The position numbers and the translations under genes are program-made. Below, piece by piece: positions 9,487-32,430 of a DNA stretch of 64,000 nucleotides (positions are counted from its first letter, which is position 1; every line of letters starts with the position of its first letter). The DNA is taken from the NCBI GenBank assembly GCA_934100165.1, contig CAKOPN010000005.1, forward strand, positions 33,804-97,803. The letters run 5' to 3'. This DNA comes from an uncultured Bacilli bacterium. Lineage in GTDB: Bacteria; Bacillota_I; Bacilli_A; RF39; UBA660. Below the pieces are notes generated by a model, which saw nothing but the letters and a program-made list of their open reading frames with translations, was not told where the DNA came from and did no database searches.

Positions 9487-11847
9487 ATGAACAGCGAAGT
9501 TACAAAAGATAATATAGTTGTGGTAAATGATGATCCCAAATTTTTTGCGCCACGTGATAGATTAGAGAAGAAAAGTGGTATATATCCAGTAAGAGCAAGA
9601 ATGACAAACTTGACTTTCTCAACTTTTGTAGGTAGCATTAAACAAGGAAGAATACCTAAACAGTCAGAAGTATTAAACGCAAGACTAAAAGAAATAAGAG
9701 AAAATATTATCGAAACTGCTACTGAAGAAGCAGAAAAGTCAATTAGAGAGTCAGCTATAGGAACGGAGTTTAAAAGTACAACAAGTGAACTTGATGCAAA
9801 AAAAATGTTGGAAGACCAAAAACTTTTTGATGCGACTTCTGTTAATACCATCTCAAGTATTTTTACAAATAATAATGCAATTTTAACAGAGTCATATTTA
9901 GATGGTCAAAAGAATAACACATTAAGAACTAGTTTGCCACGAGCTCTAAGGGTAAAAGGAAGTTTAAGTAAAGCTTGTCGTATAGTTGGTAAGAAAACCC
10001 CATCATATATAGATGAAATCAAAAAAAGAATGGAAGTTGAAGAAGCCAATAGTAGTTGGAAAAGATTGTTTGACGGTGTAACTTTAATTCACGAACCAAT
10101 TGAAGAAGATCAAAATGAAGTTAAAGTTATTAGAAACGCACCTAAAAAAACTGATACAAGCTTTAAAAGTAGAATTGTCAAAGCACAAATTGGCGATGAG
10201 TTAAACGATGTAAGAAGACTATTAAATGGGATAGGTAAAAATACACCATTTAATGCGGGTCTTCAAGAAAGAGAAAGAGAATTGTTGAGAATGCTATCTG
10301 AAACAGCTGGCATATCATTAAATATAGAAAAAACTACTGTACCTGAGGATAAGAAAACAGAAATGCAAGCTTTGATTGAAGGTCAAGTAGGGTATGTAAG
10401 ACCTTTGACTGAAGAAGAATATAAAGAGAAGGCACAAGATGTAGAAGAATATTACTCAGATCCTTTCGTACAGCAAAATATAAATGATTTGGCTATGAAG
10501 AATATTTTGTTTGATATGAATCAACCAGAATCGTATGAAAAAATTGCAAGAGCAGAAAGATTTGACAACGAAAGAAGAGCGGAGATGTCTAGTGCAATAG
10601 AGTTGCTAGAAGGAAATACAATCATTACTGAAAGTAATAAGAAAGTACCAAAGTTTACAGTAACAGAAGAAATTGCTAGGGAAGCAAGAAAAAATTCTGA
10701 AGATATTATTAGAAAAGCTCATGAGGAAGAACTTGCAGAAGCTAAAAAAATAGAAGAAGAAAAACAATTAACAATTTTGAAAAACGATGCAAAAGTACAA
10801 GCTGCTATGCTTCAAAAACAAAATGATGAAATAGAATTATTTGAAGGAGCACAAGAGCAGGCAGAACTTCTTAATAGAGTAAACTTATTACTAGATGGTG
10901 CACAAAAGCAAGCAGAGTTACTAATAAAGCAAGAAAAAGAAGAAAATTCTTTGAAAATAGGAGCTGAAGAACAAGCTAGAATGTTACTTGACTTAAATAT
11001 TCTTCTAGATGGTGCAAATGAGCAAGCACAAATGTTGTTTGAAAAAGAACAAAATGAAGCAATGTTAGAAGATGCAAGAAAAGAGGCTCTTAATATACAA
11101 AGATTAAATACTTTAATAGATGATGCTAGAAATCAAGCAAGTTTATTAATGATTCAAAATCAAAAAATCGACTTTTTAAATGATGCAGAACTTGAAGCAC
11201 GTAGAATATATGATAGAAATAATTTAGTAATAGGTGCCGAAGAACAAGCAAAACTATTATTTGAATTAGGAGAAATAATAGAAGATGCCCAAAAACAAGC
11301 TCAAATGCTAATGGAACAAGATGAAAATGCAGAGCTATTAAGTGGTGCTGAAGAACAGGCCAAAATGTTACAACAGAAAAACGAACAAATAGAATTGTTA
11401 AATGGTGCTGAAGAGCAAGCTAAATTGTTACAACAAAGAAATGAACAAATAGAATTGTTAAATGGTGCTGAAGAACAAGCTAGGATGTTACAACAAGAAG
11501 CTGAAAGAGAAAAACTCCATGAAGATTCTCTTGAAGAAGCAAAAGCAATAATGAGAAGAAATGAAGAAGAAAGAAAAAAATATATTTATAGTCCCCCATA
11601 TCAAATTACTGAAACAGAAGATAGATATGGACAAGTAGTATCCTATCCACAACCAATAAGAATTGCTGCTGATAAACTTTTAAATTTAAAAAGAAAGACA
11701 AAAAAGAAAATGGATCCTGCTAGTGCACTTATCTCTTTGAGAGAACAACTTGAACAAATGGATTTTGATGATGCACCTAACAATGACGAACAGAAAGAAA
11801 CAATAACATTTGATCTTGGCGGAAAAACAATGAGTAAAGTAATGTAA
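9487..11847 (+). CDS. Repeat-rich coiled-coil protein of unknown function
   Basis: 786 aa. The C-terminal half contains about 13 copies of a ~20-aa unit (xxGAEEQAKxLxQxNEQIELL), strongly alpha-helical and E/Q/K-rich. No TM or signal peptide. Confidence 0.7.
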   Translation: MNSEVTKDNIVVVNDDPKFFAPRDRLEKKSGIYPVRARMTNLTFSTFVGSIKQGRIPKQSEVLNARLKEIRENIIETATEEAEKSIRESAIGTEFKSTTSELDAKKMLEDQKLFDATSVNTISSIFTNNNAILTESYLDGQKNNTLRTSLPRALRVKGSLSKACRIVGKKTPSYIDEIKKRMEVEEANSSWKRLFDGVTLIHEPIEEDQNEVKVIRNAPKKTDTSFKSRIVKAQIGDELNDVRRLLNGIGKNTPFNAGLQERERELLRMLSETAGISLNIEKTTVPEDKKTEMQALIEGQVGYVRPLTEEEYKEKAQDVEEYYSDPFVQQNINDLAMKNILFDMNQPESYEKIARAERFDNERRAEMSSAIELLEGNTIITESNKKVPKFTVTEEIAREARKNSEDIIRKAHEEELAEAKKIEEEKQLTILKNDAKVQAAMLQKQNDEIELFEGAQEQAELLNRVNLLLDGAQKQAELLIKQEKEENSLKIGAEEQARMLLDLNILLDGANEQAQMLFEKEQNEAMLEDARKEALNIQRLNTLIDDARNQASLLMIQNQKIDFLNDAELEARRIYDRNNLVIGAEEQAKLLFELGEIIEDAQKQAQMLMEQDENAELLSGAEEQAKMLQQKNEQIELLNGAEEQAKLLQQRNEQIELLNGAEEQARMLQQEAEREKLHEDSLEEAKAIMRRNEEERKKYIYSPPYQITETEDRYGQVVSYPQPIRIAADKLLNLKRKTKKKMDPASALISLREQLEQMDFDDAPNNDEQKETITFDLGGKTMSKVM
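11341..11500 (+). repeat. Three tandem, nearly identical 60-bp coding repeats (units start at 11341, 11401, 11461)
   Basis: Direct comparison of the three consecutive 60-nt blocks shows only a few substitutions. They encode SGAEEQAKMLQQKNEQIELL, NGAEEQAKLLQQRNEQIELL and NGAEEQARMLQQEAE. Confidence 0.8.
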
Positions 11848-11985: not shown

Positions 11986-12873
11986 GTGAGTATGAATGGA
12001 AATTTAAATGTTTCAAAAGTGAAAAGATTCTTAAAAAATAAAAATACGGTAACAGCTTTATGTGCAATTTTAATAGTAGTAGTTTTAATCGTTGGTTACA
12101 CAATACGTGTTAATAATGCTACAAAACCAGTTAAAATACCAGTAGCAAAGGTTACAATCCAACCAAGAACAGAAATAACTGCGGATATGATAACTGAAAT
12201 AAATGTACCACAAGAAGCTTTAAAGGGTAATTATTATAGAAATGTAAGCTCTCTAGTAGGAAAATATTCAAATGTAAATACTGTAATTCCGGCTGGTAGT
12301 ATATTCTACAGTGAGGCAGTAATTAGTAAAAATGACCTACCAGATTCATCTTTATATGATGTTGCAGAAGGTGAGACTTTATATTATTTAACAGTTAATA
12401 TGCTAACAAGTTACACAAATTCAATTTTACCAGGAAATTATATTGATATATATCTTTCTACAAAAGAAAATAATAAAGCATTAGTTGGTAAAATATTAGA
12501 AAATGTTAAAATTTTAGCAGTAAAAACTTCTGATGGTAAAAATGTTTTTGAGAACTCTGATGAATCAAGAACACCATATGTAATAATTTTTGCTCTTCCA
12601 GAAGAACAACATTTATTACTTAGAAAAATAAATGCAATTAACAGCTATTCTGTATATGCAACTAATCCAGGATATTCAAAGATTGATATAATTCCAGTTC
12701 CTACCGCTGCAAGTTTTGACGGTTCGGAAAAAGATATTAAACCAAATGTAACTAGCCAATATTTAAAGGACTATATTTTAAATATGGCTGCTACAGTTCC
12801 AGAAGATGTAATTACTGAGAATAATAATAATCAAAATATAAATGAAAATGAAAACACTAACAAAACAGAATAA
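11986..12873 (+). CDS. CpaB/RcpC-like Flp-pilus assembly protein (N-terminal TM plus SAF-like domain)
   Basis: 295 aa. An N-terminal TM (VTALCAILIVVVLIVGY) is followed by a beta-rich region with LPGNYIDIY and VKILAVKT...YVIIFALPEEQHLLLRKINA motifs resembling CpaB. It ends in an Asn-rich tail. Confidence 0.6.
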   Translation: MSMNGNLNVSKVKRFLKNKNTVTALCAILIVVVLIVGYTIRVNNATKPVKIPVAKVTIQPRTEITADMITEINVPQEALKGNYYRNVSSLVGKYSNVNTVIPAGSIFYSEAVISKNDLPDSSLYDVAEGETLYYLTVNMLTSYTNSILPGNYIDIYLSTKENNKALVGKILENVKILAVKTSDGKNVFENSDESRTPYVIIFALPEEQHLLLRKINAINSYSVYATNPGYSKIDIIPVPTAASFDGSEKDIKPNVTSQYLKDYILNMAATVPEDVITENNNNQNINENENTNKTE

Positions 12874-12885
12874 TGAGGTGATTCT

Positions 12886-14373
12886 ATGAATGAGTCAATG
12901 AATTTTGGCAACATTGGTTTTAATAGTGTGGCTTCTAACAATACAGAAAATAATTTTGAAGTTAAGGCGCCAACTACTACAACAGGACAAAATATAACGG
13001 AAGAAAATAGTGGTATAGATTTTCCTAAAAGTAGTGTAGCTAAAATAGATGAGTCAAAAGAAGATAATTTTTCTAGTATTGAATTTGGACCACTACAAAA
13101 GTATCTAGATGATGATGATATCACAGATATTTCTTATAGTAATGGCGGACAACTATGGTTAAAGTCATTACAAAGAGGTGTATATAGAGCAGATCAACAA
13201 GATGTAGACAATGCTTTGGTAGAAAAAATAGCTTTCCAGTGTTCGAACGTAATGGGGAAAACATTTAACATGGCCCATCCATTCTTGGACTCTGAGAGTG
13301 CAGAGTTACGTATGAACTTTGTACACGATTCAATAGCACGTAACGGTATTGCTGCTGTTTTTCGTAAGACACCTGCTAAAATAAGACTTGAAAAAAGTAA
13401 ATTATTAAATGAAAAGTACGTTACTTTAAGTATTCATGATTTTCTAATAAACTGTGTAAAAGGGCACTGTAACATGATTGTCTGCGGTGAAACTGGTTCA
13501 GGTAAAACAGAACTTGTAAAATACTTAGCAAGTCATACAGCAGAAAATGAAAAGATAATAACTATTGAAGATACACTAGAACTTCACCTTGATAGAATAT
13601 ATCCAACTCGTGATATTGTAGCTATGAAAACAAATAACATTGCATCATATTCTGATGTTCTAGTTACATGTATGAGGCAAAACCCAAAATGGATACTACT
13701 ATCAGAAGTACGTAGTGCAGAAGCAGTTACAGCAGTTCGTAACTCTATATCATCAGGACACAACATCTTATCTACCATCCATGCTGATAAGGCAGAGAGT
13801 ATTCCACTTCGTATGTATAGCTTACTAGAGTCAAATATTGATGTAGAGCAGTTCTTAAAAACTATTTATCGTTATGTACAAGTAGGTATATTTGTAAGAG
13901 GTAGATATAGTCCAAAAGAAAAAAGATTTGTACGTGAAATTGCTGGAGTAACAGAGTTTTACGTAACGGATGATACTAATGAACCAAAAAGCAATAATAT
14001 ATATTTAAAAAATGTTGCAGGTGAAGAAACTTATAATGAGCCAACAGAATATTTAATAAATTACCTTGAAGGTCAAGGAATAGATATAAATAATTTATTT
14101 GGAGAAAATAAGTCATCACTTATTGCAACACTAAATGAAAAAGTAAATGAACCACAACCGGTAAATAATACTATACAAGCTCCTAATCAAAATATGCAGC
14201 AAAATATAAATTTAGCAGCACAAATAAATAATCAAAGTGCATTTCAAACAATACCAAATCAAAATAATGTAAACATGCAAGGCTATAATGCACCTGTTCA
14301 AGGTATGCAAAATCAAATGCCTTATCAAAGTCAAAATTTTAATCAACAAATAAATAGAATAGACACATTATAA
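12886..14373 (+). CDS. TadA/CpaF/VirB11-family secretion ATPase with N- and C-terminal low-complexity extensions
   Basis: 495 aa. Walker A CGETGSGKTE, the ITIEDTLEL aspartate box, ILLSEVRSAEA and a His box STIHA are diagnostic of the GspE/CpaF/VirB11 superfamily. An N-terminal ~100-aa N/T-rich region and a C-terminal ~90-aa Q/N-rich tail are atypical. Confidence 0.85.
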   Translation: MNESMNFGNIGFNSVASNNTENNFEVKAPTTTTGQNITEENSGIDFPKSSVAKIDESKEDNFSSIEFGPLQKYLDDDDITDISYSNGGQLWLKSLQRGVYRADQQDVDNALVEKIAFQCSNVMGKTFNMAHPFLDSESAELRMNFVHDSIARNGIAAVFRKTPAKIRLEKSKLLNEKYVTLSIHDFLINCVKGHCNMIVCGETGSGKTELVKYLASHTAENEKIITIEDTLELHLDRIYPTRDIVAMKTNNIASYSDVLVTCMRQNPKWILLSEVRSAEAVTAVRNSISSGHNILSTIHADKAESIPLRMYSLLESNIDVEQFLKTIYRYVQVGIFVRGRYSPKEKRFVREIAGVTEFYVTDDTNEPKSNNIYLKNVAGEETYNEPTEYLINYLEGQGIDINNLFGENKSSLIATLNEKVNEPQPVNNTIQAPNQNMQQNINLAAQINNQSAFQTIPNQNNVNMQGYNAPVQGMQNQMPYQSQNFNQQINRIDTL

Positions 14374-14393
14374 AATCGAAAGAAGGTGTATTT

Positions 14394-15290
14394 ATGATAG
14401 AACTAATTATCGTTATAGCAATTGCAATTTTTGCAATACTATATATGTTTAAAACTGGCGATTCTATGTACAAGTTTATCGTCGACACATCTTCTGTTGT
14501 ATACGATAAACTAGCTCCTTATTCTTTTAAAATGATAAGAGAAAAAGTAAAGGAAATGGGCCTTGAATATTCACCAAAACAGTATATGATTCAAGTTCTT
14601 ACGTTTGGTGGAGCAGCACTTGGTATATCATATTTATACTTTTACAATATTGCAGTTTCTATAGTATACATGATTCTAACGATATGCGTTATTCCATATC
14701 TAGCATACTTAAGATGTAAAAGAATATATAGTGAATTTATATTTGAGCAAATTCAGGTATATACAACAAACACTATAATGGAATTTCAAACAACTCAGAA
14801 TTTTGTAAAAGCACTAGAAGGTGTATATAACTCTGGTGTTCTTCAGTCTCCTGTATCAGATGATGTTAAAACAATGATAGATATGGCTTATAAAAATGGT
14901 GATATAACTGAATCAATAAATTTTATGAATGAACGATATGACTTTCATATGACAAGAAATATGCATCAGTTATTCTTACAAATAACAAGAGAGGGTGCAA
15001 AAGATTCAAACGAAGTATTAGAAAATATGCTTTTAGATATAGATATGCTAGTAGAAGGTGTATATAGAGATAGGATCGATAGACAAAATTTCCATAAGCA
15101 GTTCGTTCAGTATGGAATATTACTATATCTAATGGTTATGCTTGTTCAGTATTTGCTTGGAATAGACACATACTTACAGTTACTTGAGAATACATTCGTA
15201 AAAATTGCGCTTCACGTAATTGTTCTATTTAATAGTTACTTCTTACTTAGTGGTGAAAAATATTATAATGAGAATGTGGGGGCTGAGTAA
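14394..15290 (+). CDS. Polytopic membrane protein, TadB/GspF-like platform protein candidate
   Basis: 298 aa with an N-terminal TM, a central cytoplasmic helical region and further TM pairs. It sits immediately after the CpaF-like ATPase, as in tad loci. Assigned by topology and synteny only. Confidence 0.45.
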   Translation: MIELIIVIAIAIFAILYMFKTGDSMYKFIVDTSSVVYDKLAPYSFKMIREKVKEMGLEYSPKQYMIQVLTFGGAALGISYLYFYNIAVSIVYMILTICVIPYLAYLRCKRIYSEFIFEQIQVYTTNTIMEFQTTQNFVKALEGVYNSGVLQSPVSDDVKTMIDMAYKNGDITESINFMNERYDFHMTRNMHQLFLQITREGAKDSNEVLENMLLDIDMLVEGVYRDRIDRQNFHKQFVQYGILLYLMVMLVQYLLGIDTYLQLLENTFVKIALHVIVLFNSYFLLSGEKYYNENVGAE

Positions 15291-15292
15291 TT

Positions 15293-16081
15293 ATGTATAT
15301 AGAGATATTTCTTATAGCAATACTTGTACTAGTACCTTTCTTATATTCAGGAAAAATTACTACAAAGAGTTTCTTGAATGAAGAAAATGGATACTTATTA
15401 GGATTGAAAGAAAAGGATTATGACTTCTATGTCATGGCCAAATATGGTGAAACAGCTATTCCAAATAAGCTTTTCGCAGCAAGAGTAAAAAATGCTTTTT
15501 ATGGTACTTTAATAATATTTGTATTTATGATAGGTAACATAAACTTTTTAAATGTGTTAATGGTGTTAATACTAGGCGTACTTTTATTCAAAATGCCATA
15601 TATTTCTTTAAAAAGTTATTACAAAAAATATATGCATCAAATTGACTTGCTTCTTCCATATTACTTGAAAAACCTTGAAATATTATGTCAAAACTATACA
15701 GTCCCAGTGGCAATTGCGAGATCAATTGAAAGTGCTCCTGATGTATTTAAACCAGGTTTAAGAGAAATGATAGCAAAGATTGATGCTGGAGATTCTTCAA
15801 TACAACCATATATGGATTTTGCAACAACTTATCCAGTAAGAGACTCAATGAGAATGATGAGACTTTTGTATAGATTAGGTCTTGGTGCACAGGAAAATAA
15901 ATACAAACAATTACTTATATTTTCAAAGTCAGTTTCTTCACTTCAAAATAAGGCAAGAGAAGTTAAATATAAAAATAGACTTGATACTATGGAAAAGAAA
16001 ACTATGGTAATGCTTGTTGTAACCGGTGGGGGAACAATGGTTATATTACTTTTGTCAATGCTTATGTTGTTTGGAATGTAA
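15293..16081 (+). CDS. Polytopic membrane protein, TadC/GspF-like platform protein candidate
   Basis: 262 aa. N-terminal TM, a central TM pair and a C-terminal TM. It lies 2 nt after the previous gene. Assigned by synteny and topology only. Confidence 0.4.
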   Translation: MYIEIFLIAILVLVPFLYSGKITTKSFLNEENGYLLGLKEKDYDFYVMAKYGETAIPNKLFAARVKNAFYGTLIIFVFMIGNINFLNVLMVLILGVLLFKMPYISLKSYYKKYMHQIDLLLPYYLKNLEILCQNYTVPVAIARSIESAPDVFKPGLREMIAKIDAGDSSIQPYMDFATTYPVRDSMRMMRLLYRLGLGAQENKYKQLLIFSKSVSSLQNKAREVKYKNRLDTMEKKTMVMLVVTGGGTMVILLLSMLMLFGM

Positions 16082-16188
16082 AGTTAAATCGTAAATATTG
16101 ATATTAAGTAAAAATATGTTTATAATATATTATATACAATAGAAGGGAGAGATATTGGAGAATGAAAGAGGCTACAGGAGAATTAAAT

Positions 16189-16329
16189 ATGACACTTGTT
16201 ACTATTATTGCAATAGCAGCAGTATTAACTTTCGTTACTATGTTCTTACCAAAAATTTTAAATAGTGTTGGTAATACATGGGAAAATGGAACAGGACAAG
16301 AAATAAATGTTCCAAATCCAGGAAATTAA
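16189..16329 (+). CDS. Small pilin-like protein (46 aa; alternative start at 16162 gives 55 aa), absent from the supplied ORF track
   Basis: Translation MTLVTIIAIAAVLTFVTMFLPKILNSVGNTWENGTGQEINVPNPGN is a short hydrophobic helix plus a polar tail. An AGGAG RBS lies 8 nt upstream of the ATG at 16189. It sits where flp sits in tad loci. No canonical G/XXXXEY processing motif is present. Confidence 0.4.
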   Translation: MTLVTIIAIAAVLTFVTMFLPKILNSVGNTWENGTGQEINVPNPGN

Positions 16330-16352
16330 GATAGTAAAAGAGGTGATAGTTA

Positions 16353-16796
16353 ATGCGTGAGTCAATTGGTGGTACTATGCTATTTTGGATAGTATTGTTC
16401 TTTATGAGTATATTTATAACTTTTTTGGCCGCTGTTATCCAGTATGCAAAAGTTTATAAAATAAAAAACTCAATGATTAACTATCTAGAGCAAGGAGAAG
16501 GCATAGCTAGCAAGGAAGAATTTGAAAATGTACTAGCTGACTTAGGTTATCCGCAAAAAGGTAAATATGTAATATGTAGATATGGTGCAGAGAATAGAGG
16601 TGGCTATTATTATATTAAATTATATGCAACTTTCTCAGTTCTTAATGCATCTGTAGATGTTATGGTAAAAGGGGAAACAAGGCTTATTGAAAGTGGAGTC
16701 TATGTAAAAGGAAATGAATGGTTCCAGTATTTAGGTACAACCAAAAGTTGTGATGGAAGGAATGTTAGTGAAGCAGAACTTACAAGGGTGGATTAG
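16353..16796 (+). CDS. TadE-like pseudopilin candidate (N-terminal hydrophobic segment plus globular domain)
   Basis: 147 aa. MRESIGGTMLFWIVLFFMSIFITFLAAVIQYAKV is an N-terminal TM or class-III-like signal, followed by a soluble domain. AGAGGTGA RBS. It sits directly after the pilin-like ORF. Confidence 0.4.
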   Translation: MRESIGGTMLFWIVLFFMSIFITFLAAVIQYAKVYKIKNSMINYLEQGEGIASKEEFENVLADLGYPQKGKYVICRYGAENRGGYYYIKLYATFSVLNASVDVMVKGETRLIESGVYVKGNEWFQYLGTTKSCDGRNVSEAELTRVD

Positions 16797-16799
16797 CGT

Positions 16800-17747
16800 A
16801 TGAATGTATTAGTTGTTAATAAACAAGAAGATGTAATATCAGCATTAAATATAGAAGTAATTAAAACATTACGTGGTGTTTTTGATGCAGATGAGATTAT
16901 AAGCACATTTACAAATTTCTATTTTGCAAGAATGATAATTGATGTAACAGCACTCAAAGATTATGAGGATGTTGCAATATATCAGAAATTGTCAATAGGT
17001 CTTCCAATAGATAAAGTAATACTTTTAATTCCATCATCTAGTGCTGCCGCAAACAATTACTTTTTATCAAAGTTAATTTCAATGGGATATTATAATTTTA
17101 CAACAAATGGTGATGGTGTTAAGTATTTACTTACAAATCCAAATTCCTACAAGGATGTTGCCTATTTACATCAGGTTGAAGCTCCTACCAATAATGTTGT
17201 TCCAACAGAAAATGGTGGTGCTGTATTAAGTGGAATAAGAATCCTAGGAGTTAAGAATGTAACTGATGAAGCAGGTTCATCATCGCTTATATATATGATG
17301 AAAAAGGAGCTTGAAGAGAAGTATAATCTTTCAGTTTTAGCTGTCGAAGTTGATAAAAGAGATTTCACTTTCTTTAGAAGCAAGGATATGATATCTACAG
17401 ATAAAACTTCTATTGCGACTGAGCTTCTTAAAGCTAAGAATTACAACTATATATTAGTTGATTTAAATGATTATGATGAAAATATATGTGATGAAACTTT
17501 ATACTTAATTGAACCATCAATAATTAAACTTAATAAACTAATGTTGAGGGACAAGGGTGTTTTTTCAAGATTAAGGGATAAAAAGGTTATAATAAACAGA
17601 TCAGTTTTGAATGAAGCTGATATTAAGGAATTTGCTTCAGAAGCGGGTATAAAAATATTTGATGTTATACCTTGCTTAAATGATAGAGAATTATCAAAAG
17701 AAATTTCTAGTTTACTTGTTAAACTTGGAATGGTTAAGAGTGTGTAA
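16800..17747 (+). CDS. Hypothetical cytoplasmic protein associated with the Tad-like locus (possibly a degenerate CpaE/TadZ-like protein)
   Basis: 315 aa with no TM. It sits where tadZ/cpaE would be, but has no canonical deviant Walker A. Function unassigned. Confidence 0.5.
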   Translation: MNVLVVNKQEDVISALNIEVIKTLRGVFDADEIISTFTNFYFARMIIDVTALKDYEDVAIYQKLSIGLPIDKVILLIPSSSAAANNYFLSKLISMGYYNFTTNGDGVKYLLTNPNSYKDVAYLHQVEAPTNNVVPTENGGAVLSGIRILGVKNVTDEAGSSSLIYMMKKELEEKYNLSVLAVEVDKRDFTFFRSKDMISTDKTSIATELLKAKNYNYILVDLNDYDENICDETLYLIEPSIIKLNKLMLRDKGVFSRLRDKKVIINRSVLNEADIKEFASEAGIKIFDVIPCLNDRELSKEISSLLVKLGMVKSV

Positions 17748-17759
17748 CATAAATAATCG

Positions 17760-17788
17760 TTGACAAATAAAGGTTGTTATAGTATTAT
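17760..17788 (+). promoter_or_regulatory. Consensus sigma-A-type promoter TTGACA-17 nt-TATTAT upstream of the VirB2-like gene
   Basis: Perfect -35 hexamer (17760-17765), a 17-nt spacer and a TATTAT -10 (17783-17788). A GGAGGAG RBS at 17804-17810 precedes the ATG at 17817. Confidence 0.5.
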
Positions 17789-17816
17789 TTAGTTATGAAA
17801 TTTGGAGGAGTTTTGT

Positions 17817-18146
17817 ATGGAAATATTTCAAACTTTAGCTGATGCTTGCGGAGGATTACGTCCGATCGTTGCAGTATTAAAAGGTGTATTTGATATTATT
17901 AAAATAGGTGTTCCAATTTTACTTATAATAATGGGAGCAATAGACTTAGGAAAAGCTGTTATGGCTAGTGATGATAAAGAAATCAAAGCAGCAACTAGTA
18001 AGTTAATTAAACGTGCTATTGCAGCAGCTGCAGTGTTCTTTGCTGTTACTATTGTAGATGTAGTAATGGGACTAGTAGCAAGAGGAGAAGAAACTGATGG
18101 TGAAACAAACTCATCAAGTTGGTCTGCTTGCTGGAAGAGTATGTAA
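17817..18146 (+). CDS. Small two-TM protein, VirB2/TrbC-like pilin candidate
   Basis: 109 aa from the ATG at 17817. The track start at 17802 is a TTG inside the RBS. There are two hydrophobic helices (IGVPILLIIMGAIDLG and AIAAAAVFFAVTIVDVVMGLV) separated by a charged loop, the topology of VirB2/TrbC-family conjugative pilins. Confidence 0.4.
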   Translation: MEIFQTLADACGGLRPIVAVLKGVFDIIKIGVPILLIIMGAIDLGKAVMASDDKEIKAATSKLIKRAIAAAAVFFAVTIVDVVMGLVARGEETDGETNSSSWSACWKSM

Positions 18147-18257
18147 TTTTAATTATATCTGTAAAAGGAAGGATTATTTCTTCTTTTTTTTTAATTTTTA
18201 TTTATGTTTTTTGTAAAATATGTTATATTAGATGTGTGTATTTTATGCGAGGTAAGT

Positions 18258-19466
18258 ATGGATAAAAAAGTGTATAAATATATTGGAATATTAGTCGGCT
18301 TAGTAGTTTTATTAGTAGTAGTTGTATGGATATCTAATCTTGTTAGCGGTGGAACAACCTATTCCTATGAAAGTATAGAGAAAAAAATGGTAAGTGCTAC
18401 TAAAAGTTATATGAAAGATCATTCAGCAATGCTTCCTACAGAAGTTGGAGAAAGTGTAACAATATCACCAACTGTGTTAGTTAACAATAATTACTTTAAA
18501 GGTTTTGACGCATATGTAAAAGATAGCGACGTTGTATGTAACGGAAGTGTTGATGTATATATGGCTGGTGACGGTTATTATGATTACACACCAACTCTTA
18601 ATTGCGGAAATAAACACAATACAACGAAGTTATATGAAAAAGTTTTAGAAGATAATAACTATGGTGTAGTAATGGGATATGGTCTTTATCAAAGAGTGAA
18701 TGGAACGTTTGTTACAAACGAAGATAATCTAGTAATTGATAACAATTATGAAAGCCTTGAATATGTATTTCGTGGAAAAGATGTTAATAACTATGTAAAA
18801 ATCGATGATAATTACTGGAGAATAGTTGCAATAAGTGATGCCGGTGATATGACACTTTTATTCTCTGGAACACTCCAAAGAGGTGTATCTTGGGATGATA
18901 AATATAATGAAAGTGTTGGTAAAAATCAAGGTATAAATGATTATGAAAAAAATGGAATAAAAAGTACAATAAGAGAAGAAGTAGAAAAATTTTATAATGG
19001 AGAAGCAACATTGCTAAATAAAGAAGAATATAGTCCTAAAACTAAATATTTAATTTCACCTGCTTCATTGTGTATTGGCAAAAGAAAAGCAACGGATAAA
19101 GATTCAAGTGGAAAAATAGAATGTAGTCAAAGACTTGATGGACAGTATGTAGGATTGCTTCCAGCATACTACTATATGAATGCAAGTGTTGATGAAAACT
19201 GTGATACAATTACTTCAAGAAGTTGTGGAAATGATAACTATTTATCAAGCTTTAATGATTACTGGTGGCTTTTAACTGCTAATCAAGAAGCAAGTAATGA
19301 AGCATACCAAGTATTTAAAACCTATGCTCGTTCAGAATTGTGTATAGCAAAAACAAATGTTAAACCAACTGTTTTACTAGGAAATAGAGTATTATGGGAA
19401 AGTGGAGATGGAAGCAGTAACAATCCATATACCATCAAGTTTTATGCTGATGACAGTTTAAATTAA
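18258..19466 (+). CDS. Membrane-anchored Cys-rich extracellular protein of unknown function
   Basis: About 402 aa from the ATG at 18258 (GAGG RBS). An N-terminal TM anchor (YIGILVGLVVLLVVVVWI) is followed by an extracellular domain with ~10 Cys. Located inside the T4SS-like array. Confidence 0.55.
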   Translation: MDKKVYKYIGILVGLVVLLVVVVWISNLVSGGTTYSYESIEKKMVSATKSYMKDHSAMLPTEVGESVTISPTVLVNNNYFKGFDAYVKDSDVVCNGSVDVYMAGDGYYDYTPTLNCGNKHNTTKLYEKVLEDNNYGVVMGYGLYQRVNGTFVTNEDNLVIDNNYESLEYVFRGKDVNNYVKIDDNYWRIVAISDAGDMTLLFSGTLQRGVSWDDKYNESVGKNQGINDYEKNGIKSTIREEVEKFYNGEATLLNKEEYSPKTKYLISPASLCIGKRKATDKDSSGKIECSQRLDGQYVGLLPAYYYMNASVDENCDTITSRSCGNDNYLSSFNDYWWLLTANQEASNEAYQVFKTYARSELCIAKTNVKPTVLLGNRVLWESGDGSSNNPYTIKFYADDSLN

Positions 19467-19500
19467 AGATGAGTAGTTTTAATAAAAAAGGAGTGATATT

Positions 19501-21381
19501 ATGGGATTACAAGCAGAAAGTTGGATCAATAATATACTAAGGACAATTTTAGCTGGCCTTGATTATGTTATTTATGGACTAATTAAAAACGTACTTTTTC
19601 TAACTTTTGACTTAGCTAATTTAACAACAAGCTCAAAGATATTAAATGGTATATATAGTCGTATATATGTACTTTTAGGAGTATTTATGGCTTTCAAACT
19701 TTCTTTTTCATTCTTTCAATACATTGTTGATCCAGAATCAATGACAGGAAAAAGTGAAAAAGGTGTTGGAAAACTTATTTCACGTACAATAGTTATGCTT
19801 GTAGCACTGGTTGGTCTTCCAACAATATTATTTGGTGGTGGTGATGGTGAAGGCTTAATTCAGAGAGCTCAAAATGCATTTTTACCAATGCTACCTAGAG
19901 TTATCTTTGGAATAAGCGAAGATAGCGGTGTATCTGCAAGTAATGGTAATAACACTGAAGACATTACTAATGCTGCAAATACGATGGCAGCTTATACGTT
20001 AGGTGCTTTTTTCGCACCGTCGCCGGATTTGGATAGTGTATGTGAAGGTCAATATGCCAATACACCATACATAACATCACTTGACCAATTTATTTCAAAT
20101 GTTAATGTGAGTTGTAGAAACACTACTGGTAAGGGTGATAGTGCTAAATACTACAAATATAGTTATATATGCTTAATATCTACGGTAGTAGGACTATTGT
20201 TAGTAATTATTTTGTTAGGAATTGCCTTAGACGTTGGAAAGAGAGTTTTCAAAATGATAATTTTACAAGCAATAGCACCAATTCCAATAATGTCGTTAAT
20301 AGATCCAAAGTCAAGCAAAGATGGTGCTTTTTCACACTGGTTAAAGTCTTTAATTTCAACTTTCTTAGAAATATTTATTAAACTGGGTTTGGTATACCTT
20401 GTGCTTATGTTTATACAGTACATTATAAGTGGAGGATTGTTTAGTAATTTTCCAAGTTTTAGTGGACCAAACGGAGTAATTAGAAGTTCATTCTTATTTG
20501 TAACCTTGATAATAGCATTGCTCTTATTTGCCAAAGAAGCTCCAAAATTTATCAAGGATGCTATGGGAATTAAAGATTCAGGTGCTGGCTTTGGACAAGG
20601 AATGAGCGCTGCTATGGGAGCCATCGGTGGATTTATTGGTGGACGTGGTCTTGCTGGTATGGCAACAGGAGCAGTCGCAGGAGCTACAGCAGATCCTAAA
20701 GTTGGTGGTTACGCAGCAGGTCGTGACATAGCAGGTCAAATGAGAACAGGTGATAAAAACTGGAAAGGTGGTCTTACTAATGGCTTCATGAGAGGTGCAA
20801 GAAATCACCAAGGTACAAGAGAAGCAAGAAAACTTGGTGTAACTTCAGCAAGTTTGAGTGCTGCTAAAGATGCAATGAAGAAGGATGAAGAACGTGTTGA
20901 ATCACTACAACAAGCATATGGTGAAGCAGTACAAAGCGGAGATGCAACTGCTATTGCCGAAGCAAGAACAAATTTAAATGCTGCTATCAAACAGTCAAAA
21001 GCCTCAAAGAAAAGATACGAAGGTATGGACAAAATTGCCGATACATTTGGTATAAAAACACCAAAACATGTTGAAATGAAACAAAATGGAAACCCAGTGT
21101 ACAGAGGAAGAAGATCAGCAGCTAACCTTGCTGGCAAAGCTGGTAGTTGGATAGAGAATAGCAAAGTTGGTGCACCTATTAGAACAATTGATTCAGCAGT
21201 ACAACAGCATAGAATTAATCAAGTAACAAGAGGTGCAGCATTTGGAGATGATTCAGCACTTGCAGAAAGAAGAGATGAACTAGATAGTAGAGGTACATTA
21301 CAATCAAAAACTGGTCGTCACTTTGCACCAAGAGGCTCAAATAACAATAATTCTGGCGGTTCTAGTGGAAGTAGTTCATAA
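19501..21381 (+). CDS. VirB6/TrbL-like polytopic membrane protein with a long Gly-rich hydrophilic C-terminal tail
   Basis: 626 aa. About 6 TM helices in the first ~360 aa, then a Gly/Ala-rich segment (GAGFGQGMSAAMGAIGGFIGGRGLAGMATGAVAGA) and a ~250-aa charged tail ending in SGGSSGSSS. This architecture and the synteny (before VirB3-like and VirB4) are typical of VirB6-like proteins of Gram-positive T4SS. Confidence 0.5.
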   Translation: MGLQAESWINNILRTILAGLDYVIYGLIKNVLFLTFDLANLTTSSKILNGIYSRIYVLLGVFMAFKLSFSFFQYIVDPESMTGKSEKGVGKLISRTIVMLVALVGLPTILFGGGDGEGLIQRAQNAFLPMLPRVIFGISEDSGVSASNGNNTEDITNAANTMAAYTLGAFFAPSPDLDSVCEGQYANTPYITSLDQFISNVNVSCRNTTGKGDSAKYYKYSYICLISTVVGLLLVIILLGIALDVGKRVFKMIILQAIAPIPIMSLIDPKSSKDGAFSHWLKSLISTFLEIFIKLGLVYLVLMFIQYIISGGLFSNFPSFSGPNGVIRSSFLFVTLIIALLLFAKEAPKFIKDAMGIKDSGAGFGQGMSAAMGAIGGFIGGRGLAGMATGAVAGATADPKVGGYAAGRDIAGQMRTGDKNWKGGLTNGFMRGARNHQGTREARKLGVTSASLSAAKDAMKKDEERVESLQQAYGEAVQSGDATAIAEARTNLNAAIKQSKASKKRYEGMDKIADTFGIKTPKHVEMKQNGNPVYRGRRSAANLAGKAGSWIENSKVGAPIRTIDSAVQQHRINQVTRGAAFGDDSALAERRDELDSRGTLQSKTGRHFAPRGSNNNNSGGSSGSSS

Positions 21382-21399
21382 AAGGGAGTGTGATATATA

Positions 21400-21726
21400 G
21401 TGAATAATTATTTAATACCCGCAAATGCCAATAGAGGAAGACTAATTTTAGGGTACTTCAGGCCAATTGATTTAATTATCTTTCTAGTAGGAATTACAGC
21501 AACACTAATTTTATTCTTAGTATTTCAGGATTATACCGACAGTACTTTGGTAGTTATAACTCTTATGCTTCCAGTACTTACAGCATTACTCTTAGTATTA
21601 CCAATACCATATCAACATAACGTATTGGTTCTTCTTACAGCTATATATAGTTTCTTTTGTGTAAATAGACAAAAATATGTTTGGAGAGGTTGGTGTATGA
21701 AATATGACGACGAGACAAAGAAGTAG
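21400..21726 (+). CDS. VirB3/PrgI-like small two-TM membrane protein
   Basis: 108 aa with two TM helices, immediately upstream of the VirB4 gene as in Gram-positive conjugation loci. GTG start with an AAGGGAG RBS. Confidence 0.4.
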   Translation: MNNYLIPANANRGRLILGYFRPIDLIIFLVGITATLILFLVFQDYTDSTLVVITLMLPVLTALLLVLPIPYQHNVLVLLTAIYSFFCVNRQKYVWRGWCMKYDDETKK

Positions 21727-22255
21727 ATTTACAGAAGACTGGGTACCAGTTCAAAATATTACAAATGGAATGATAATCCTTAACAATCAAGAAAAAGTAA
21801 CTGGAGTTAAAGTTGCTCCTAAAAATATATTTATATTGGATTATGAATCACAGCAATCAGTTTTGGTAAACTTGCAAAATATGTATAACCAAATAGATTT
21901 TGAGTTTTGGTTAGTAGTAGCGGATAGACCAGTTGACATATCTGTGTATATGTCACAATTACAACTCCTTTATAATCAAGAGTCTTCACCAGCAATTAGA
22001 AAACTTATTGCTGAAGACATAGATAAAGGAAGTTCATTTATGAATAACAACGTTGTTGATACAGAATATTTCCTTCTATTTAAAGAAAGAGATATGGATA
22101 GAATTCAAAGAAGAATAAGAATGCTTATAAATGCATTAGCAACAGCAGGACTTTCAGCAAAACAAACATCAAATGAGGATTTAAGAGTTATACTCGATAA
22201 CTTCTTAAATGGTGGAAAAACTACAGATTTTGGAACGGTGGTGGTTAATCAATGA
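21704..22255 (+). CDS. Hypothetical protein; possible separately encoded N-terminal portion or partner of VirB4
   Basis: 183 aa with no TM. It overlaps the VirB3-like gene by 23 nt and the VirB4 ORF by ATGA (22252-22255). Together with the 597-aa ORF it sums to ~780 aa, the usual VirB4 size. Confidence 0.4.
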   Translation: MTTRQRSRFTEDWVPVQNITNGMIILNNQEKVTGVKVAPKNIFILDYESQQSVLVNLQNMYNQIDFEFWLVVADRPVDISVYMSQLQLLYNQESSPAIRKLIAEDIDKGSSFMNNNVVDTEYFLLFKERDMDRIQRRIRMLINALATAGLSAKQTSNEDLRVILDNFLNGGKTTDFGTVVVNQ

Positions 22256-24045
22256 GTATGTTAAAGTTTAAATCACAAATTGCACCAAAAGGATTACAAT
22301 TTTATCCTAGTGAATTTTTTATAAGTGATAAATATGCTACTATATTAACAGTTGTATCATTTCCAAAATTTATTTCGCCAGGATACCTTTCAAGCATAAC
22401 AAATATGTCTGGTATTAAGATTGTTATCAAACATATTCCACTACCTTTTTCAGTAGTATCAAAAATGTTAAATAAGCAAATAGCAGACTTAAAAATTAAA
22501 TATCAAGAAGAACATGATAGAACAATGCAAGAAAAATATCGTATGGACTATGAATCACTTGAGTCTTTCGTAACAATGTTAGCAGGAAGTCAAGCTAGAA
22601 TATTCGATTTCCAAATGCATATTTTAATTACTGCAGATTCAAAAGAAAGTTTGGAACTTAAGAAAACAAATATTAAAAACTACCTAGATGCCATGGGAAT
22701 GAAAGGAGTGGCATTAAGATTTGAGCAAGAAAAAGCTTTAAAATCAATGATTCCAGTATTTCCAAAGCAAGACATAGAAGAGAGAATAGGAACACCAATC
22801 CCTTCAGTAACAATTGCTGCAATGTACCCATTTATCTTTGACAGCGTAAAAGATCCTGGATATGCAACGCTTTTAGGAGTTGATTTCTCAGGTGGTGTTA
22901 TCTTGTTCAACCAATTCTTGTATAAAATAAGAAAAGAAAATAATAGAAACAATGCAAACCTTATCTTACTAGGTACATCAGGTAGTGGTAAATCAACAGC
23001 AGCTAAACTTTTACTTAGAGGCCATATAAGAAATGGTTGCCAAATAGTAGCAATAGACCCAGAAAACGAGCTTGAAGAGATGACAAAAACATTTGGAGGA
23101 GACACAATCGACCTTGGTAAAGGTGGAGAATTCGGTATGATTAACCCACTTCAAATAGTAATTGATGCTGATGAAGATGAAATGAGACAGGGACTAGGAT
23201 ATACAGTCTTAACTCGTACACTACAGTTCTTAAAAGCCTTTATGAAATATTATGATCCATCAATTGAAGAAGATGTACTTACATTGTTTAGTGAAGTTGT
23301 TCAAGATACATACAAGCGTTTTGGAATTGACTTTGATAAAGACTTCTATAGCTATGGACCACAAGATTATCCAACATTCTCAGATGTTTATGAAACTATA
23401 AAAGCAATACTTTTATCAATGACGGATAAAACACATGAACGTGATATAATGGAAAGACTTGAGTTAAAAATAAGACCACTTACCAAAGATTTAAAATACT
23501 ATTTTGATGGTCATACAACTATAACTCATGATAGCGATTTTATTACATTTAACATTAAAGAGCTTATGAATGCTGATGAAAATATTAAAAATGCACTTTT
23601 CTTCAACATTTTGAAATATGCTTGGGGATTATGTTTGGACAAAGATGTTGATACAATTCTGATGGTAGATGAAGCACACGTTCTATTAAGTGATAGCAAT
23701 ACTCTAGGTGCAGACTTCTTAGCTCAAGTTCAAAGACGTGCTAGAAAATATAACACAGGAACGATTATAATTACACAACAACCAAGTGACTTTGCAGCGC
23801 CAAGTGTTCTAGTACAAGGTAAAGCAATATTCGATAATGCTTCTTACTACTTAGTAATGGGATTAAAGAAACAAGCAACAGAGGACTTAAGTCTGTTGAT
23901 AGATTTAAATGATAATGAAAAAGAAAGTATTAAACAGTATTCACAAGGTGAAGCACTGTTCGTCTGTGGAAATAGACGTATGAGAATAAATGTTATTGTA
24001 ACACCAGAAGAGCTATCATCATTCGGTAGTGGCGGAGGACTATAA
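22252..24045 (+). CDS. VirB4/TraE/TrsE-family T4SS ATPase
   Basis: 597 aa. Walker A LILLGTSGSGKST, Walker B ILMVDEAHVL, motif RRARKYNTGTIIITQQPSDF, and the N-terminal YPSEFFISDKYATILTVVSFPKF region typical of Gram-positive VirB4 proteins. Confidence 0.85.
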   Translation: MSMLKFKSQIAPKGLQFYPSEFFISDKYATILTVVSFPKFISPGYLSSITNMSGIKIVIKHIPLPFSVVSKMLNKQIADLKIKYQEEHDRTMQEKYRMDYESLESFVTMLAGSQARIFDFQMHILITADSKESLELKKTNIKNYLDAMGMKGVALRFEQEKALKSMIPVFPKQDIEERIGTPIPSVTIAAMYPFIFDSVKDPGYATLLGVDFSGGVILFNQFLYKIRKENNRNNANLILLGTSGSGKSTAAKLLLRGHIRNGCQIVAIDPENELEEMTKTFGGDTIDLGKGGEFGMINPLQIVIDADEDEMRQGLGYTVLTRTLQFLKAFMKYYDPSIEEDVLTLFSEVVQDTYKRFGIDFDKDFYSYGPQDYPTFSDVYETIKAILLSMTDKTHERDIMERLELKIRPLTKDLKYYFDGHTTITHDSDFITFNIKELMNADENIKNALFFNILKYAWGLCLDKDVDTILMVDEAHVLLSDSNTLGADFLAQVQRRARKYNTGTIIITQQPSDFAAPSVLVQGKAIFDNASYYLVMGLKKQATEDLSLLIDLNDNEKESIKQYSQGEALFVCGNRRMRINVIVTPEELSSFGSGGGL

Positions 24046-30884: not shown

Positions 30885-31223
30885 GTGTTACAAATTGAAA
30901 CAATATATAAAAAAGGAATTCTTTTTGTAAGATGTTATGGAGTAATAAATAAAGAAACAAAAAAAGAACTTGAAAAAACACTTGAAAGCGCCATAAATGA
31001 AGTTGGTATAAAATATTTGCTTTTAAACGTTGAAAATATTTACTATATAAATACAGAAATAGAATCCATAATAAAAAAATGGAGTACTATTTTAAGTAAA
31101 AAGGATGGAAAGTTCTTTATGTGTGGAAAAGAACAATTAAAAGAAACATATGATGTTGATAAAACAGAAAAAGTACTACAGATGACAGATGAATTTAGTG
31201 TATTTAAAATGATAAATATATAG
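30885..31223 (+). CDS. spoIIAA: STAS-domain anti-sigma-factor antagonist, SpoIIAA-like (divergent)
   Basis: 112 aa. It aligns along its length with SpoIIAA (IETIYKKGILFVRCYGVI..., YLLLNVENIYYIN..., FFMCGKEQLKE) and sits immediately upstream of sigF. The canonical phospho-acceptor DSSG loop reads NTEIES here. GTG start with a GGAGG RBS. Confidence 0.65.
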   Translation: MLQIETIYKKGILFVRCYGVINKETKKELEKTLESAINEVGIKYLLLNVENIYYINTEIESIIKKWSTILSKKDGKFFMCGKEQLKETYDVDKTEKVLQMTDEFSVFKMINI

Positions 31224-31224
31224 G

Positions 31225-31917: not shown

Positions 31918-31942
31918 CTGCTATAAAAAGCAGTTTTTTTGT
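31916..31942 (+). terminator. Rho-independent terminator between sigF and spoVAC
   Basis: Hairpin AACTGCT-ataaaa-AGCAGTT followed by TTTTTTT. Confidence 0.55.
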
Positions 31943-31985
31943 ATAAAAATACCATTTTTGTTAATCATATTTATAGGTGATTATA

Positions 31986-32429: not shown

Positions 32430-32430
32430 G

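Follow-up and report, generated by a model that had tools for sequence, protein, structure and literature searches.

The window analysed here is a stretch of 64,000 nucleotides (64 kb, G+C content ~29%) from an uncultured Bacilli bacterium (GenBank assembly GCA_934100165.1, contig CAKOPN010000005.1). At positions 11986-24045 it carries two gene modules, one resembling the machinery of Tad pili and one resembling a Gram-positive-type type IV secretion system (T4SS), the latter with VirB2-, VirB6-, VirB3- and VirB4-like genes (Table 1). We focus on a very short open reading frame (ORF) of the first module, hereafter termed mini-ORF. It starts 80 bp 3' of the gene for a polytopic membrane protein of 262 amino acids (aa) and ends 23 bp 5' of the gene for a 147-aa protein with an N-terminal hydrophobic helix. 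An earlier annotation made from the letters of the window alone (the sequence-only reading) had described this ORF as a pilin-like gene of 46 codons, or of 55 codons if counted from an upstream ATG, and the longer frame is indeed present at the place indicated.

Table 1. Features of the locus, with positions counted from the first letter of the window.
Feature	Position	Strand	Basis and remarks
CpaB/RcpC-like protein	11986..12873	+	Pfam RcpC 3.4e-7, 30.6 bits against a cut-off of 28.8; NCBIfam pilus_cpaB (TIGR03177) 4.8e-13, below the equivalog cut-off
Secretion ATPase, CpaF/VirB11/TrbB type	12886..14373	+	Pfam T2SSE 4.7e-26, 91.7 bits against a cut-off of 24.9
TM298, 298-aa polytopic membrane protein, candidate TadB-like platform	14394..15290	+	hhalign link to the TadB-position protein of plasmid pCER270
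TM262, 262-aa polytopic membrane protein, candidate TadC-like platform	15293..16081	+	AlphaFold2 model, mean pLDDT (predicted local distance difference test) 67.5
Sigma-A/sigma-70-type promoter TTGATA-17 nt-TATAAT	16098..16126	+	11/12 consensus positions; in the 80-bp gap 5' of the mini-ORF
Ribosome-binding site GAAGGGAG	16142..16149	+	12 nt 5' of ATG 16162
Mini-ORF, putative Flp-like prepilin	16162..16329	+	55 codons plus stop, MKEATGELNMTLVTIIAIAAVLTFVTMFLPKILNSVGNTWENGTGQEINVPNPGN; homologues, alignment, codons, per-position conservation
Putative leader peptide MKEATG	16162..16179	+	Predicted cleavage after Gly6
Putative mature 49-aa subunit	16180..16326	+	Invariant Glu +1 and Thr +5; hydrophobic helix to ~Pro30; variable tail
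147-aa "TadE-like" protein, candidate minor pilin	16353..16796	+	N-terminus MRESIGG-TMLFWIVLFF; AlphaFold2 mean pLDDT 84.9
p315, 315-aa conserved soluble protein	16800..17747	+	In 61/61 loci with enough downstream DNA
114-aa VirB2-like/T4SS_pilin-like protein	17802..18146	+	Pfam T4SS_pilin 1.1e-4, below cut-off; NCBIfam Mbov_0395 pilin-like conjugal transfer protein 0.049
VirB6/TrbL-like channel protein	19501..21381	+	Pfam TrbL_4 1.4e-6, above cut-off; NCBIfam pLS20_p028 family 1.8e-7
Two overlapping genes (108 aa and 183 aa), VirB3-like and TraC-like positions	21400..22255	+	183-aa homologues carry PF26593 TraC-like; order as in the pBS72 T4SS operon
VirB4-like ATPase	22252..24045	+	Pfam AAA_10 2.9e-12, P-loop_TraG 3.8e-10; 75-92% identical across 61 loci

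At a G+C content of 29%, short ORFs arise frequently and are weak evidence by themselves; conservation was therefore used as the test. A word-indexed protein search returned 428 relatives of 49-81 aa, nearly all of them unnamed and a few titled "hypothetical protein" from "Bacilli bacterium" metagenome-assembled genomes (MAGs). An exhaustive hidden Markov model (HMM) search of 1.84 billion cluster representatives yielded 663 clusters at 50% identity (E <= 0.001). All 150 matches listed for this search align from residue 1 of the query, and from their own residue 1 in every case except P0175. In a scan of one genome per species, the mini-ORF was present in at least 381 species-level genomes, and all 80 loci that were kept stem from uncultured isolates or MAGs labelled Bacilli, Erysipelotrichaceae, Tenericutes/Mollicutes, Ca. 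Onthousia or Ca. Scybalousia. These species-genome loci were retrieved by the peptide patterns MKEATGEL and NMTLVTII, so that invariance among them is partly by construction; the word-indexed and HMM searches are free of this retrieval bias.

Residues 1-11 (MKEATGELNMT) are nearly invariant among 265 distinct sequences of the family, with residues 1-9 as conserved as the helix that follows. M1, K2, E7 and T11 do not vary at all, L8 hardly varies, and A4 and G6 are found in 262 and 263 of the sequences, respectively. On the DNA level, the codons for K2, E3, A4, T5, G6, E7, N9 and T11 each occur in two to four synonymous forms over a fixed peptide (82 distinct DNA sequences), which shows that selection acts on the protein from the first ATG at position 16162. 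GTG serves as the start codon in four loci, of which three are near-identical contexts of the same protein, and in one relative (L084) Asn replaces the internal Met. The mini-ORF is thus a real gene and its product is the 55-aa form from ATG 16162. The 46-aa product from the internal ATG, which the sequence-only reading had put forward, is rejected by the conservation of residues 1-11 as protein, the start of the listed HMM matches at residue 1, the synonymous codons, the GTG starts and the locus that lacks the internal Met. The AGGAG that had been taken for its ribosome-binding site (RBS) consists of the Thr-Gly-Glu codons, reads ACTGGTGAA in other genomes and is not conserved as DNA. Nor is the gene unannotated or easily missed, as had been supposed, since gene callers already predict it in many public assemblies. 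For a chance ORF or a non-coding feature, the frequency of short ORFs at this base composition could be cited; the numbers of clusters and species genomes and the synonymous codon variation refute it, RBS and promoter are conserved, and there is no Rfam family match, which leaves this explanation with a negligible probability.

The expression signals agree with the upstream start. In all loci inspected for an RBS, GAAAGGAG, GAAGGGAG or AAGGAGG lies 7-12 nt 5' of this codon. A -35/-10 pair scoring at least 10/12 is located 22-38 nt 5' of the mini-ORF start in 67 of 86 loci by count, and its position is kept though the intergenic sequences have diverged. Promoter-type sites in the region are about as numerous as expected (7 observed, 7.4 expected), and a lone match in such AT-rich DNA is not significant; the promoter counts as evidence because its position is conserved across loci and not because of the single match. 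A strong promoter of its own inside an operon is as expected for a subunit that is needed in large excess. No terminator was predicted in the mini-ORF region, and an Rfam scan of the same region found no genuine family. Its only hit, a weak match to the animal microRNA family mir-202 within the TM262 gene (15593-15637, reverse strand), reached 25 bits against a gathering score of 51 and is almost certainly spurious.

The product of the mini-ORF begins with a short polar leader (residues 1-6) that ends in Gly. Residues 7-11 (ELNMT) are almost invariant, and a hydrophobic stretch of about 20 residues (approximately residues 10-29) leads up to a Pro at about position 30 in most members. Beyond it the tail varies freely in sequence and length, with a column entropy above 2.5 bits from about position 31 and total lengths of 46-100 aa among the 265 sequences. 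Counted from residue 41 on, 176 of these contain no Cys, 68 contain two, 15 four and three six, while only three have an odd number (even in 262/265). The even counts suggest disulfide pairs, and hence a tail that is probably exported and folded. Judged from the sequence, this layout is that of a class III (prepilin) signal, and with 49 aa the predicted mature protein is comparable in size to Flp pilins. The statement of the sequence-only reading that a processing motif is missing is correct for G/XXXXEY, but the true start codon reveals the short, Gly-ended leader MKEATG. The N_methyl motif G/[FM]TL[IL]E is absent from the mini-ORF.

A small product, tails that are variable and in many members rich in Cys, and leaders ending in Gly (Gly-Gly in the TadE-like proteins) could also fit the precursor of a secreted peptide of the bacteriocin or pheromone type. 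We consider this explanation very improbable. The leader has only six residues, it is the membrane helix and not the variable tail that is conserved, and the gene keeps a strictly conserved position inside a secretion-machine operon in which no C39-peptidase ABC exporter, immunity or modification gene was found.

The leader of the mini-ORF has a counterpart in the protein encoded next to it. The TadE-like protein and its homologues begin with M[KR][ED][AGS]x[GS] followed by a hydrophobic stretch, a signature that is common to the mini-ORF, and their leaders end in Gly-Gly. All start codons of 86 loci, in each of the six frames, were screened for this leader signature plus hydrophobicity, and the matches comprised the mini-ORF, the TadE-like gene with its extra paralogues, and ORFs of ~40 aa inside T4SS-pilin-like genes, but nothing else. 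In the AlphaFold2 model of the 147-aa protein, a helix at residues 4-48 and a second one at 54-63 are combined with four beta strands that form a sheet; the modelled architecture is the general "lollipop" of pilins. Matches to the Pfam models Tad, TadE and DUF4320 were marginal (E = 0.08-0.19 in 1-2 of 25 members), a profile search of the PDB sequences with the TadE-like alignment returned nothing relevant, and an hhalign comparison with the DUF4320 protein of plasmid pCER270 was not significant. "TadE-like" is therefore used here as a description of architecture and position rather than of family membership. The same caution applies to the label "TadC-like" given to the 262-aa protein by the sequence-only reading: neither label has a significant family match; topology, weak fold hits and a single transitive profile link are all that speaks for them.

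In some genomes one or two additional TadE-like paralogues with the same leader are present, and five loci (L013, L033, L076, L081 and L082, at about 10.2-11.2 kb) contain a tandem pair of them. An 84-aa gene that follows the mini-ORF in another locus (L004:10392-10646) was considered as a second pilin and rejected, as it corresponds to the C-terminal part of a TadE-like paralogue and is probably a pseudogene. The ~40-aa ORFs were likewise rejected as further pilins because they lie inside T4SS-pilin-like genes. They start with MKEAQSKLV(I)RLV..., are duplicated in two loci (L044:13656 and 14897; L062:13616 and 14569) and seem to represent the second helices of T4SS-pilin-like genes that have been duplicated, so that the VirB2-like gene is multi-copy in some genomes.

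The gene order around the mini-ORF is conserved. A large secreted or coiled-coil protein, (DUF5411), the CpaB-like protein, the ATPase, TM298 and TM262 precede it; one or two TadE-like genes, p315, the VirB2/T4SS_pilin-like gene, a variable gene and the VirB6/TrbL-like, VirB3-position, TraC-like and VirB4-like genes follow. The CpaB-like protein, the ATPase, TM298 and TM262 are found in 76 of the 77 loci with enough upstream DNA, and the Tad-like and T4SS modules (VirB4 and VirB6 set) are co-located in 56 of 61. Housekeeping genes flank the locus, with a ClpB-like gene upstream and trigger factor downstream. On the basis of profile matches, we regard the family assignments as firm for the T2SSE ATPase, the RcpC/CpaB protein (just above the Pfam cut-off), the TrbL_4 (VirB6-like) protein and the VirB4-type ATPase. 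The best NCBIfam models for the T2SSE ATPase were VirB11 (3.6e-30), TrbB (1.1e-28) and the TadA family (1.6e-27), all below their cut-offs, and its nearest plasmid relatives are "CpaF/VirB11 family" proteins of pXO1-type and pBS72-type plasmids with 27-31% identity.

TM298 and TM262 are encoded by adjacent genes and resemble a TadB/TadC pair in size and topology. In a profile comparison (hhalign), TM298 aligned with the TadB-position protein of pCER270 over 269 columns (probability 84.7%, E = 6.7e-6), a protein that itself shows a weak T2SSF match (E = 0.011). Comparisons of TM298 and TM262 with canonical TadB/C, of TM298 with TM262, and of TM262 with the TadC-position protein of pCER270 were not significant. 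The model of TM262, which is of moderate confidence, had no Foldseek match at E <= 0.001; the hits of highest probability were the cytoplasmic domain of GspF/EpsF (2vma; 0.51, E = 1.4) and SpoIIIAB (6bs9; 0.41), a protein with a GspF-like fold, and neither was significant. For p315 no Pfam or PDB match was found. A weak local hhalign match to the AAA/TadZ-like protein of pCER270 at the Walker-A region was not significant (probability 8%), and p315 is possibly a degenerate TadZ/ParA-like protein. The locus most likely joins two modules genetically, a Gram-positive-type T4SS and a Tad-like (type IV filament) module that has diverged very strongly.

Side by side with the T4SS genes, the mini-ORF might also be read as an accessory of that system (VirB2/VirB7-like or of the exclusion type), in which case the "Tad-like" genes would be divergent T4SS parts, namely VirB11 plus membrane proteins. 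The ATPase does score best against VirB11/TrbB models, the two modules occur together in the great majority of loci, as counted above, and conjugation operons of the pBS72/pLS20 type hold a CpaF/VirB11 ATPase beside VirB6, VirB3 and VirB4 in the same order. We nevertheless consider it quite improbable. The VirB2/T4SS_pilin role is already filled by the separate 114-aa gene, and the mini-ORF, which has no match to the T4SS_pilin model, encodes a single hydrophobic segment, as opposed to the helical hairpin and long signal peptide of VirB2/TraA, and thus does not look like a T4SS pilin. Furthermore, CpaB/RcpC is a Tad component and not one of T4SS and scores above its Pfam cut-off, and TM298 is related to the TadB-position protein of a cpaB-tadZ-cpaF locus.

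Two further regions of the window deserve mention. Just upstream of the locus (9487-11847) lies the gene for a 786-aa protein with no family match, which is rich in degenerate 20-aa coiled-coil repeats (GAEEQAKLL...ELLN); clean 60-bp tandem repeats are located at 11338-11496. At 30885-33426, genes for a STAS-domain protein, a sigma-70-family sigma factor, SpoVAC/SpoVAEB and SpoVAD were found; the organism therefore carries sporulation genes, though some related MAGs are titled Tenericutes/Mollicutes.

Both halves of the locus have relatives on plasmids. The Tad-like cluster of pCER270 (L086), a pXO1-family plasmid of the Bacillus cereus group, consists of a DUF5411-like gene, DUF4320, cpaB, an AAA/TadZ-like gene, CpaF/VirB11, two membrane proteins and three tandem genes for 67-aa proteins. 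As in our locus, cpaB, (TadZ-like), CpaF/VirB11, the TadB-position gene and the TadC-position gene are succeeded by small single-helix proteins, and a DUF5411 gene lies upstream, as it does in two of the related loci (L001 and L004). Plasmids of this type are also among the closest plasmid relatives of the window's ATPase, besides providing the partner in the TM298 alignment. The statement of the sequence-only reading that the mini-ORF sits exactly in the flp position needs to be amended accordingly: canonical tad loci have flp at the 5' end beside tadV, and placement after a TadC-like gene is that of the Firmicute pXO1-type loci. The small genes of pCER270 are near-identical, encode 67-68 aa with the N-terminus ...SSENG/MLIALAVIIVLVIGPF, stand after the TadC-position gene (L086:16946-17698) and are annotated as hypothetical only. 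Like the mini-ORF they lack Glu +5. Unlike it they have a 21-residue leader (...SSENG/MLIAL), come in three tandem copies and show no detectable similarity to it. The pCER270 cluster also differs in being plasmid-borne, and VirB4 or VirB6 genes do not adjoin the part of it that was examined.

The right half of the locus matches the conjugative T4SS of pLS20/pBS72-type plasmids, which share the VirB6-like gene (pLS20_p028 family), the VirB3-position gene, a small gene and VirB4, with a CpaF/VirB11 ATPase in the same operon. In pBS72 the order is VirD4, x, CpaF/VirB11, x, VirB6-like (pLS20_p028), DUF5592, x, VirB4, x, hydrolase ... relaxase. In contrast to these plasmids, neither a VirD4 coupling protein nor a relaxase was seen in the window or in the annotated related contexts, and the window's locus is chromosomal and vertically conserved, has housekeeping flanks and contains an added module of CpaB, platform proteins and mini-pilin. 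From its gene content, the locus resembles a pXO1-type Tad-like cluster and a pBS72-type T4SS that have been brought together on the chromosome and are inherited vertically.

A comparable degree of divergence has been reported for the Tad-like cluster of TANB77, likewise an uncultured gut Firmicute with a reduced genome, where the Tad machine is recognisable mainly by structure and the pilin-like proteins lack sequence homology and have their own promoters (PMC11680825). TANB77 belongs to the Clostridia, however, its pilin-like proteins are 143-237 aa long, its TadB and TadC form one fused protein, and a T4SS module has not been reported (PMC11680825). Flp-like pilins with degenerate motifs and tad-like loci without a recognisable prepilin have also been described in Gram-positives (PMC3244431). 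The mini-ORF family, its MKEATG/ELNMT signature and the conserved Tad-like plus T4SS locus were not described in the literature that we searched, and we found no earlier description of them.

On balance, we think it fairly probable that the mini-ORF encodes a Flp-like major pilin whose class III signal is of a variant kind; it would be cleaved by an unlinked peptidase and form the thin filament of the divergent Tad-like module. The pilin-like reading of the earlier annotation thus gains from the gene's own promoter, the invariant N-terminus combined with a hypervariable tail of even Cys number, the shared leader and the conserved order of CpaB and ATPase genes, whereas its start codon, its flp position and its gene labels had to be corrected. 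The protein has much in common with the Flp/Fap (type IVc, Tad) pilins, such as Flp1 of Aggregatibacter, PilA of Caulobacter and Flp of Ralstonia (in L088). These, too, are tiny prepilins in which a short leader ending in Gly directly precedes a helix of ~20 residues with a short exposed tail, the locus contains a CpaB-like protein and a CpaF-type ATPase, and larger TadE-type proteins share the leader signature.

We posit that the system could operate as follows. Transcription of the mini-ORF from its own strong promoter, which is conserved as sequence and presumed to be active, would supply the subunit in excess. The protein would be inserted into the membrane by its single hydrophobic helix with the N-terminus inside and the C-terminus outside, as the sequence and the even-numbered Cys of the tail suggest. 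A prepilin peptidase of the A24 type, presumably encoded elsewhere in the genome, would then cut off the leader MKEATG after Gly6. The mature protein of 49 residues, with the invariant Glu as its first residue, would be extracted from the membrane and polymerised; by analogy, this would be the work of the CpaF/VirB11-type ATPase together with TM298, TM262 and the CpaB-like protein. The TadE-like protein or proteins, bearing the same leader signature, might prime or cap the filament as minor subunits.

Several results weigh against a processed Flp-like pilin. The canonical G/XXXXEY motif, which reads G/ATAIEYG and G/VALTEY in the Ralstonia and Rhizobium examples, has no match: Gly6 is followed by E-L-N-M-T-[LVI], with an invariant Thr at +5, Leu, Val or Ile at +6 and, instead, an invariant Glu at +1. 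The absence of Glu +5 from both the mini-ORF and the TadE-like protein, already noticed in the sequence-only reading, is hereby confirmed, and Tyr +6 is missing as well. Since both proteins lack this residue, subunit registration must differ from that of canonical Flp and type IV pilins. Among 34 members of the alignment compared with Pfam, neither Flp_Fap, Flp1_like nor any other pilin model appeared at E <= 10; only weak LapA_dom scores typical of a generic transmembrane (TM) segment were obtained, and NCBIfam yielded no match. Given the lack of a Flp model match and of the G/XXXXEY motif, we do not file the mini-ORF as a member of the Flp family. The six-residue leader carries no net positive charge (K2, E3) and varies as little as the helix, an unusual feature in a sequence that is only cut off and lost. 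The position after a TadC-like gene instead of at the 5' end, the missing linked tadV and the fusion of the locus to VirB4- and VirB6-type genes are further differences from Flp/Fap systems. The hhalign comparison of the mini-ORF with the small protein of pCER270 was not significant, and the model of the 147-aa protein has no significant Foldseek neighbour in the PDB, solved pilins included. TM298 and TM262 have no Pfam or PDB sequence match and no significant T2SSF similarity, and the ATPase, scoring slightly better for VirB11/TrbB than for TadA, could belong to the T4SS module.

A prepilin peptidase is also missing from the surroundings of the gene. No gene for an A24 peptidase was found in the window, nor at a distance of up to 10 kb from the mini-ORF in 85 genomes. 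Every multi-TM ORF of the window was assigned to another family by a hydrophobicity screen plus Pfam, the GxGDxK motif, searched for as a regular expression, occurs neither in the window nor in any of 85 related loci, and with two canonical TadV proteins as queries phmmer retrieved nothing below E = 0.1 among 3003 ORF segments. This extends the earlier observation that the array contains no TadV/CpaA-like gene from the immediate locus to the whole window and 85 related loci. The absence is real, but it is not unusual in itself: the genes for prepilin peptidases frequently lie apart from the systems they serve, different systems often share one enzyme, and no MSH locus contains such a gene (PMC6668835).

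A close relative with a complete MAG (L008, OZ006981.1), whose TM298 is 85% identical to that of the window, bears on this point. The gene immediately upstream of its CpaB gene specifies a Cys-rich surface protein of 968 aa (L008:1568-4474) with Listeria-Bacteroides repeats and the prepilin N-terminus ...RRKKG/FTLIEV, for which the Pfam model N_methyl scores above cut-off. With a canonical N_methyl prepilin in this genome, the lineage probably has an A24 peptidase elsewhere, and the L008 genome itself very probably encodes one of the PilD/ComC type. The 968-aa protein may be a pilus-borne adhesin. In other genomes, proteins of 900-1350 aa with a Sec signal occupy the same position.

The features that weigh against a Flp-like pilin may be read in favour of a protein that is never cleaved and is no part of a filament, that is, a single-pass membrane subunit of the Tad/T4SS machine (a small stator, adaptor or assembly factor) in which MKEATGELNMT would dock to the cytoplasmic ATPase or platform. 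Leader conservation on a par with that of the helix, with M1, K2, E7 and T11 invariant in the 265 sequences, is atypical of cleaved prepilin leaders, neither the window nor any related locus yielded an A24 peptidase, and Glu +5 and a pilin family match are both absent. We hold this to be possible but rather on the unlikely side. A dedicated, near-consensus promoter fits a subunit made in excess better than a stoichiometric adaptor, the hypervariable, length-variable and often Cys-paired tails are typical of surface-exposed filament subunits, and the leader signature is common to proteins of pilin-like architecture. Strict conservation around a cleavage site also has a precedent in archaeal EppA (PMC4390842).

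This precedent is instructive for the Flp-like pilin that we favour. The archaeal EppA-dependent (Epd) pilins have a class III signal without the bacterial Glu +5 rule, and recognition of their cleavage site is strict (PMC4390842): EppA depends on positions -2 to +2, among them an essential polar residue, Gln, at +1 (PMC4390842). The mini-ORF has a polar residue at +1 too, the invariant Glu. Tad systems are, moreover, thought to derive from the archaeal (EppA/Epd) branch (PMC6668835). On the other side, the hosts of the mini-ORF are bacteria, no sequence similarity to Epd pilins was detected, and no EppA-like or A24 gene was found nearby. The invariant Glu +1 and Thr +5 may substitute for Glu +5 or act as strict determinants of peptidase recognition. 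It is speculation that Glu +1 takes over the charge role of Glu +5, and equally speculative, by analogy with EppA, that a strict peptidase recognition window explains the invariance of the leader.

A more far-reaching proposition, which we put forward only tentatively and judge unlikely, is that the mini-ORF product is the filament subunit of an undescribed hybrid nanomachine, in which a Tad-type pilus is permanently coupled to a VirB4/VirB6 channel without relaxase or coupling protein. Its signal M-K-E-A-T-G/E, without Glu +5, would then represent a new class, either recognised strictly from -5 to +5 by a lineage-specific peptidase or not cleaved at all. The task of the machine would lie in DNA uptake or exchange or in contact-dependent interaction with other cells, and not in adhesion alone, and it would be a core chromosomal trait passed on vertically in hundreds of uncultured gut Bacilli with small genomes.

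If the favoured reading as a Flp-like pilin is true, a large family of filament subunits, with the 663 clusters and at least 381 species genomes reported above, has been invisible to Pfam, NCBIfam and motif-based pilin finders. One practical lesson is that the start codon and RBS of such a short gene are best judged from comparative data and not from one sequence. The family would also break the Glu +5 rule that is used for recognising type IV and Flp pilins and for explaining their assembly, and it would offer a natural test case for the need for this residue. The hypervariable tails, often disulfide-bonded according to their Cys pattern, are candidate surface antigens and strain markers. The hosts are uncultured gut Bacilli that are common in human, ruminant, rabbit and chicken samples. 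The conserved linkage of a pilus module with VirB4 and VirB6 genes but no relaxase suggests a domesticated apparatus, which these uncultured organisms with reduced genomes could use for taking up or exchanging DNA or for contact between cells.

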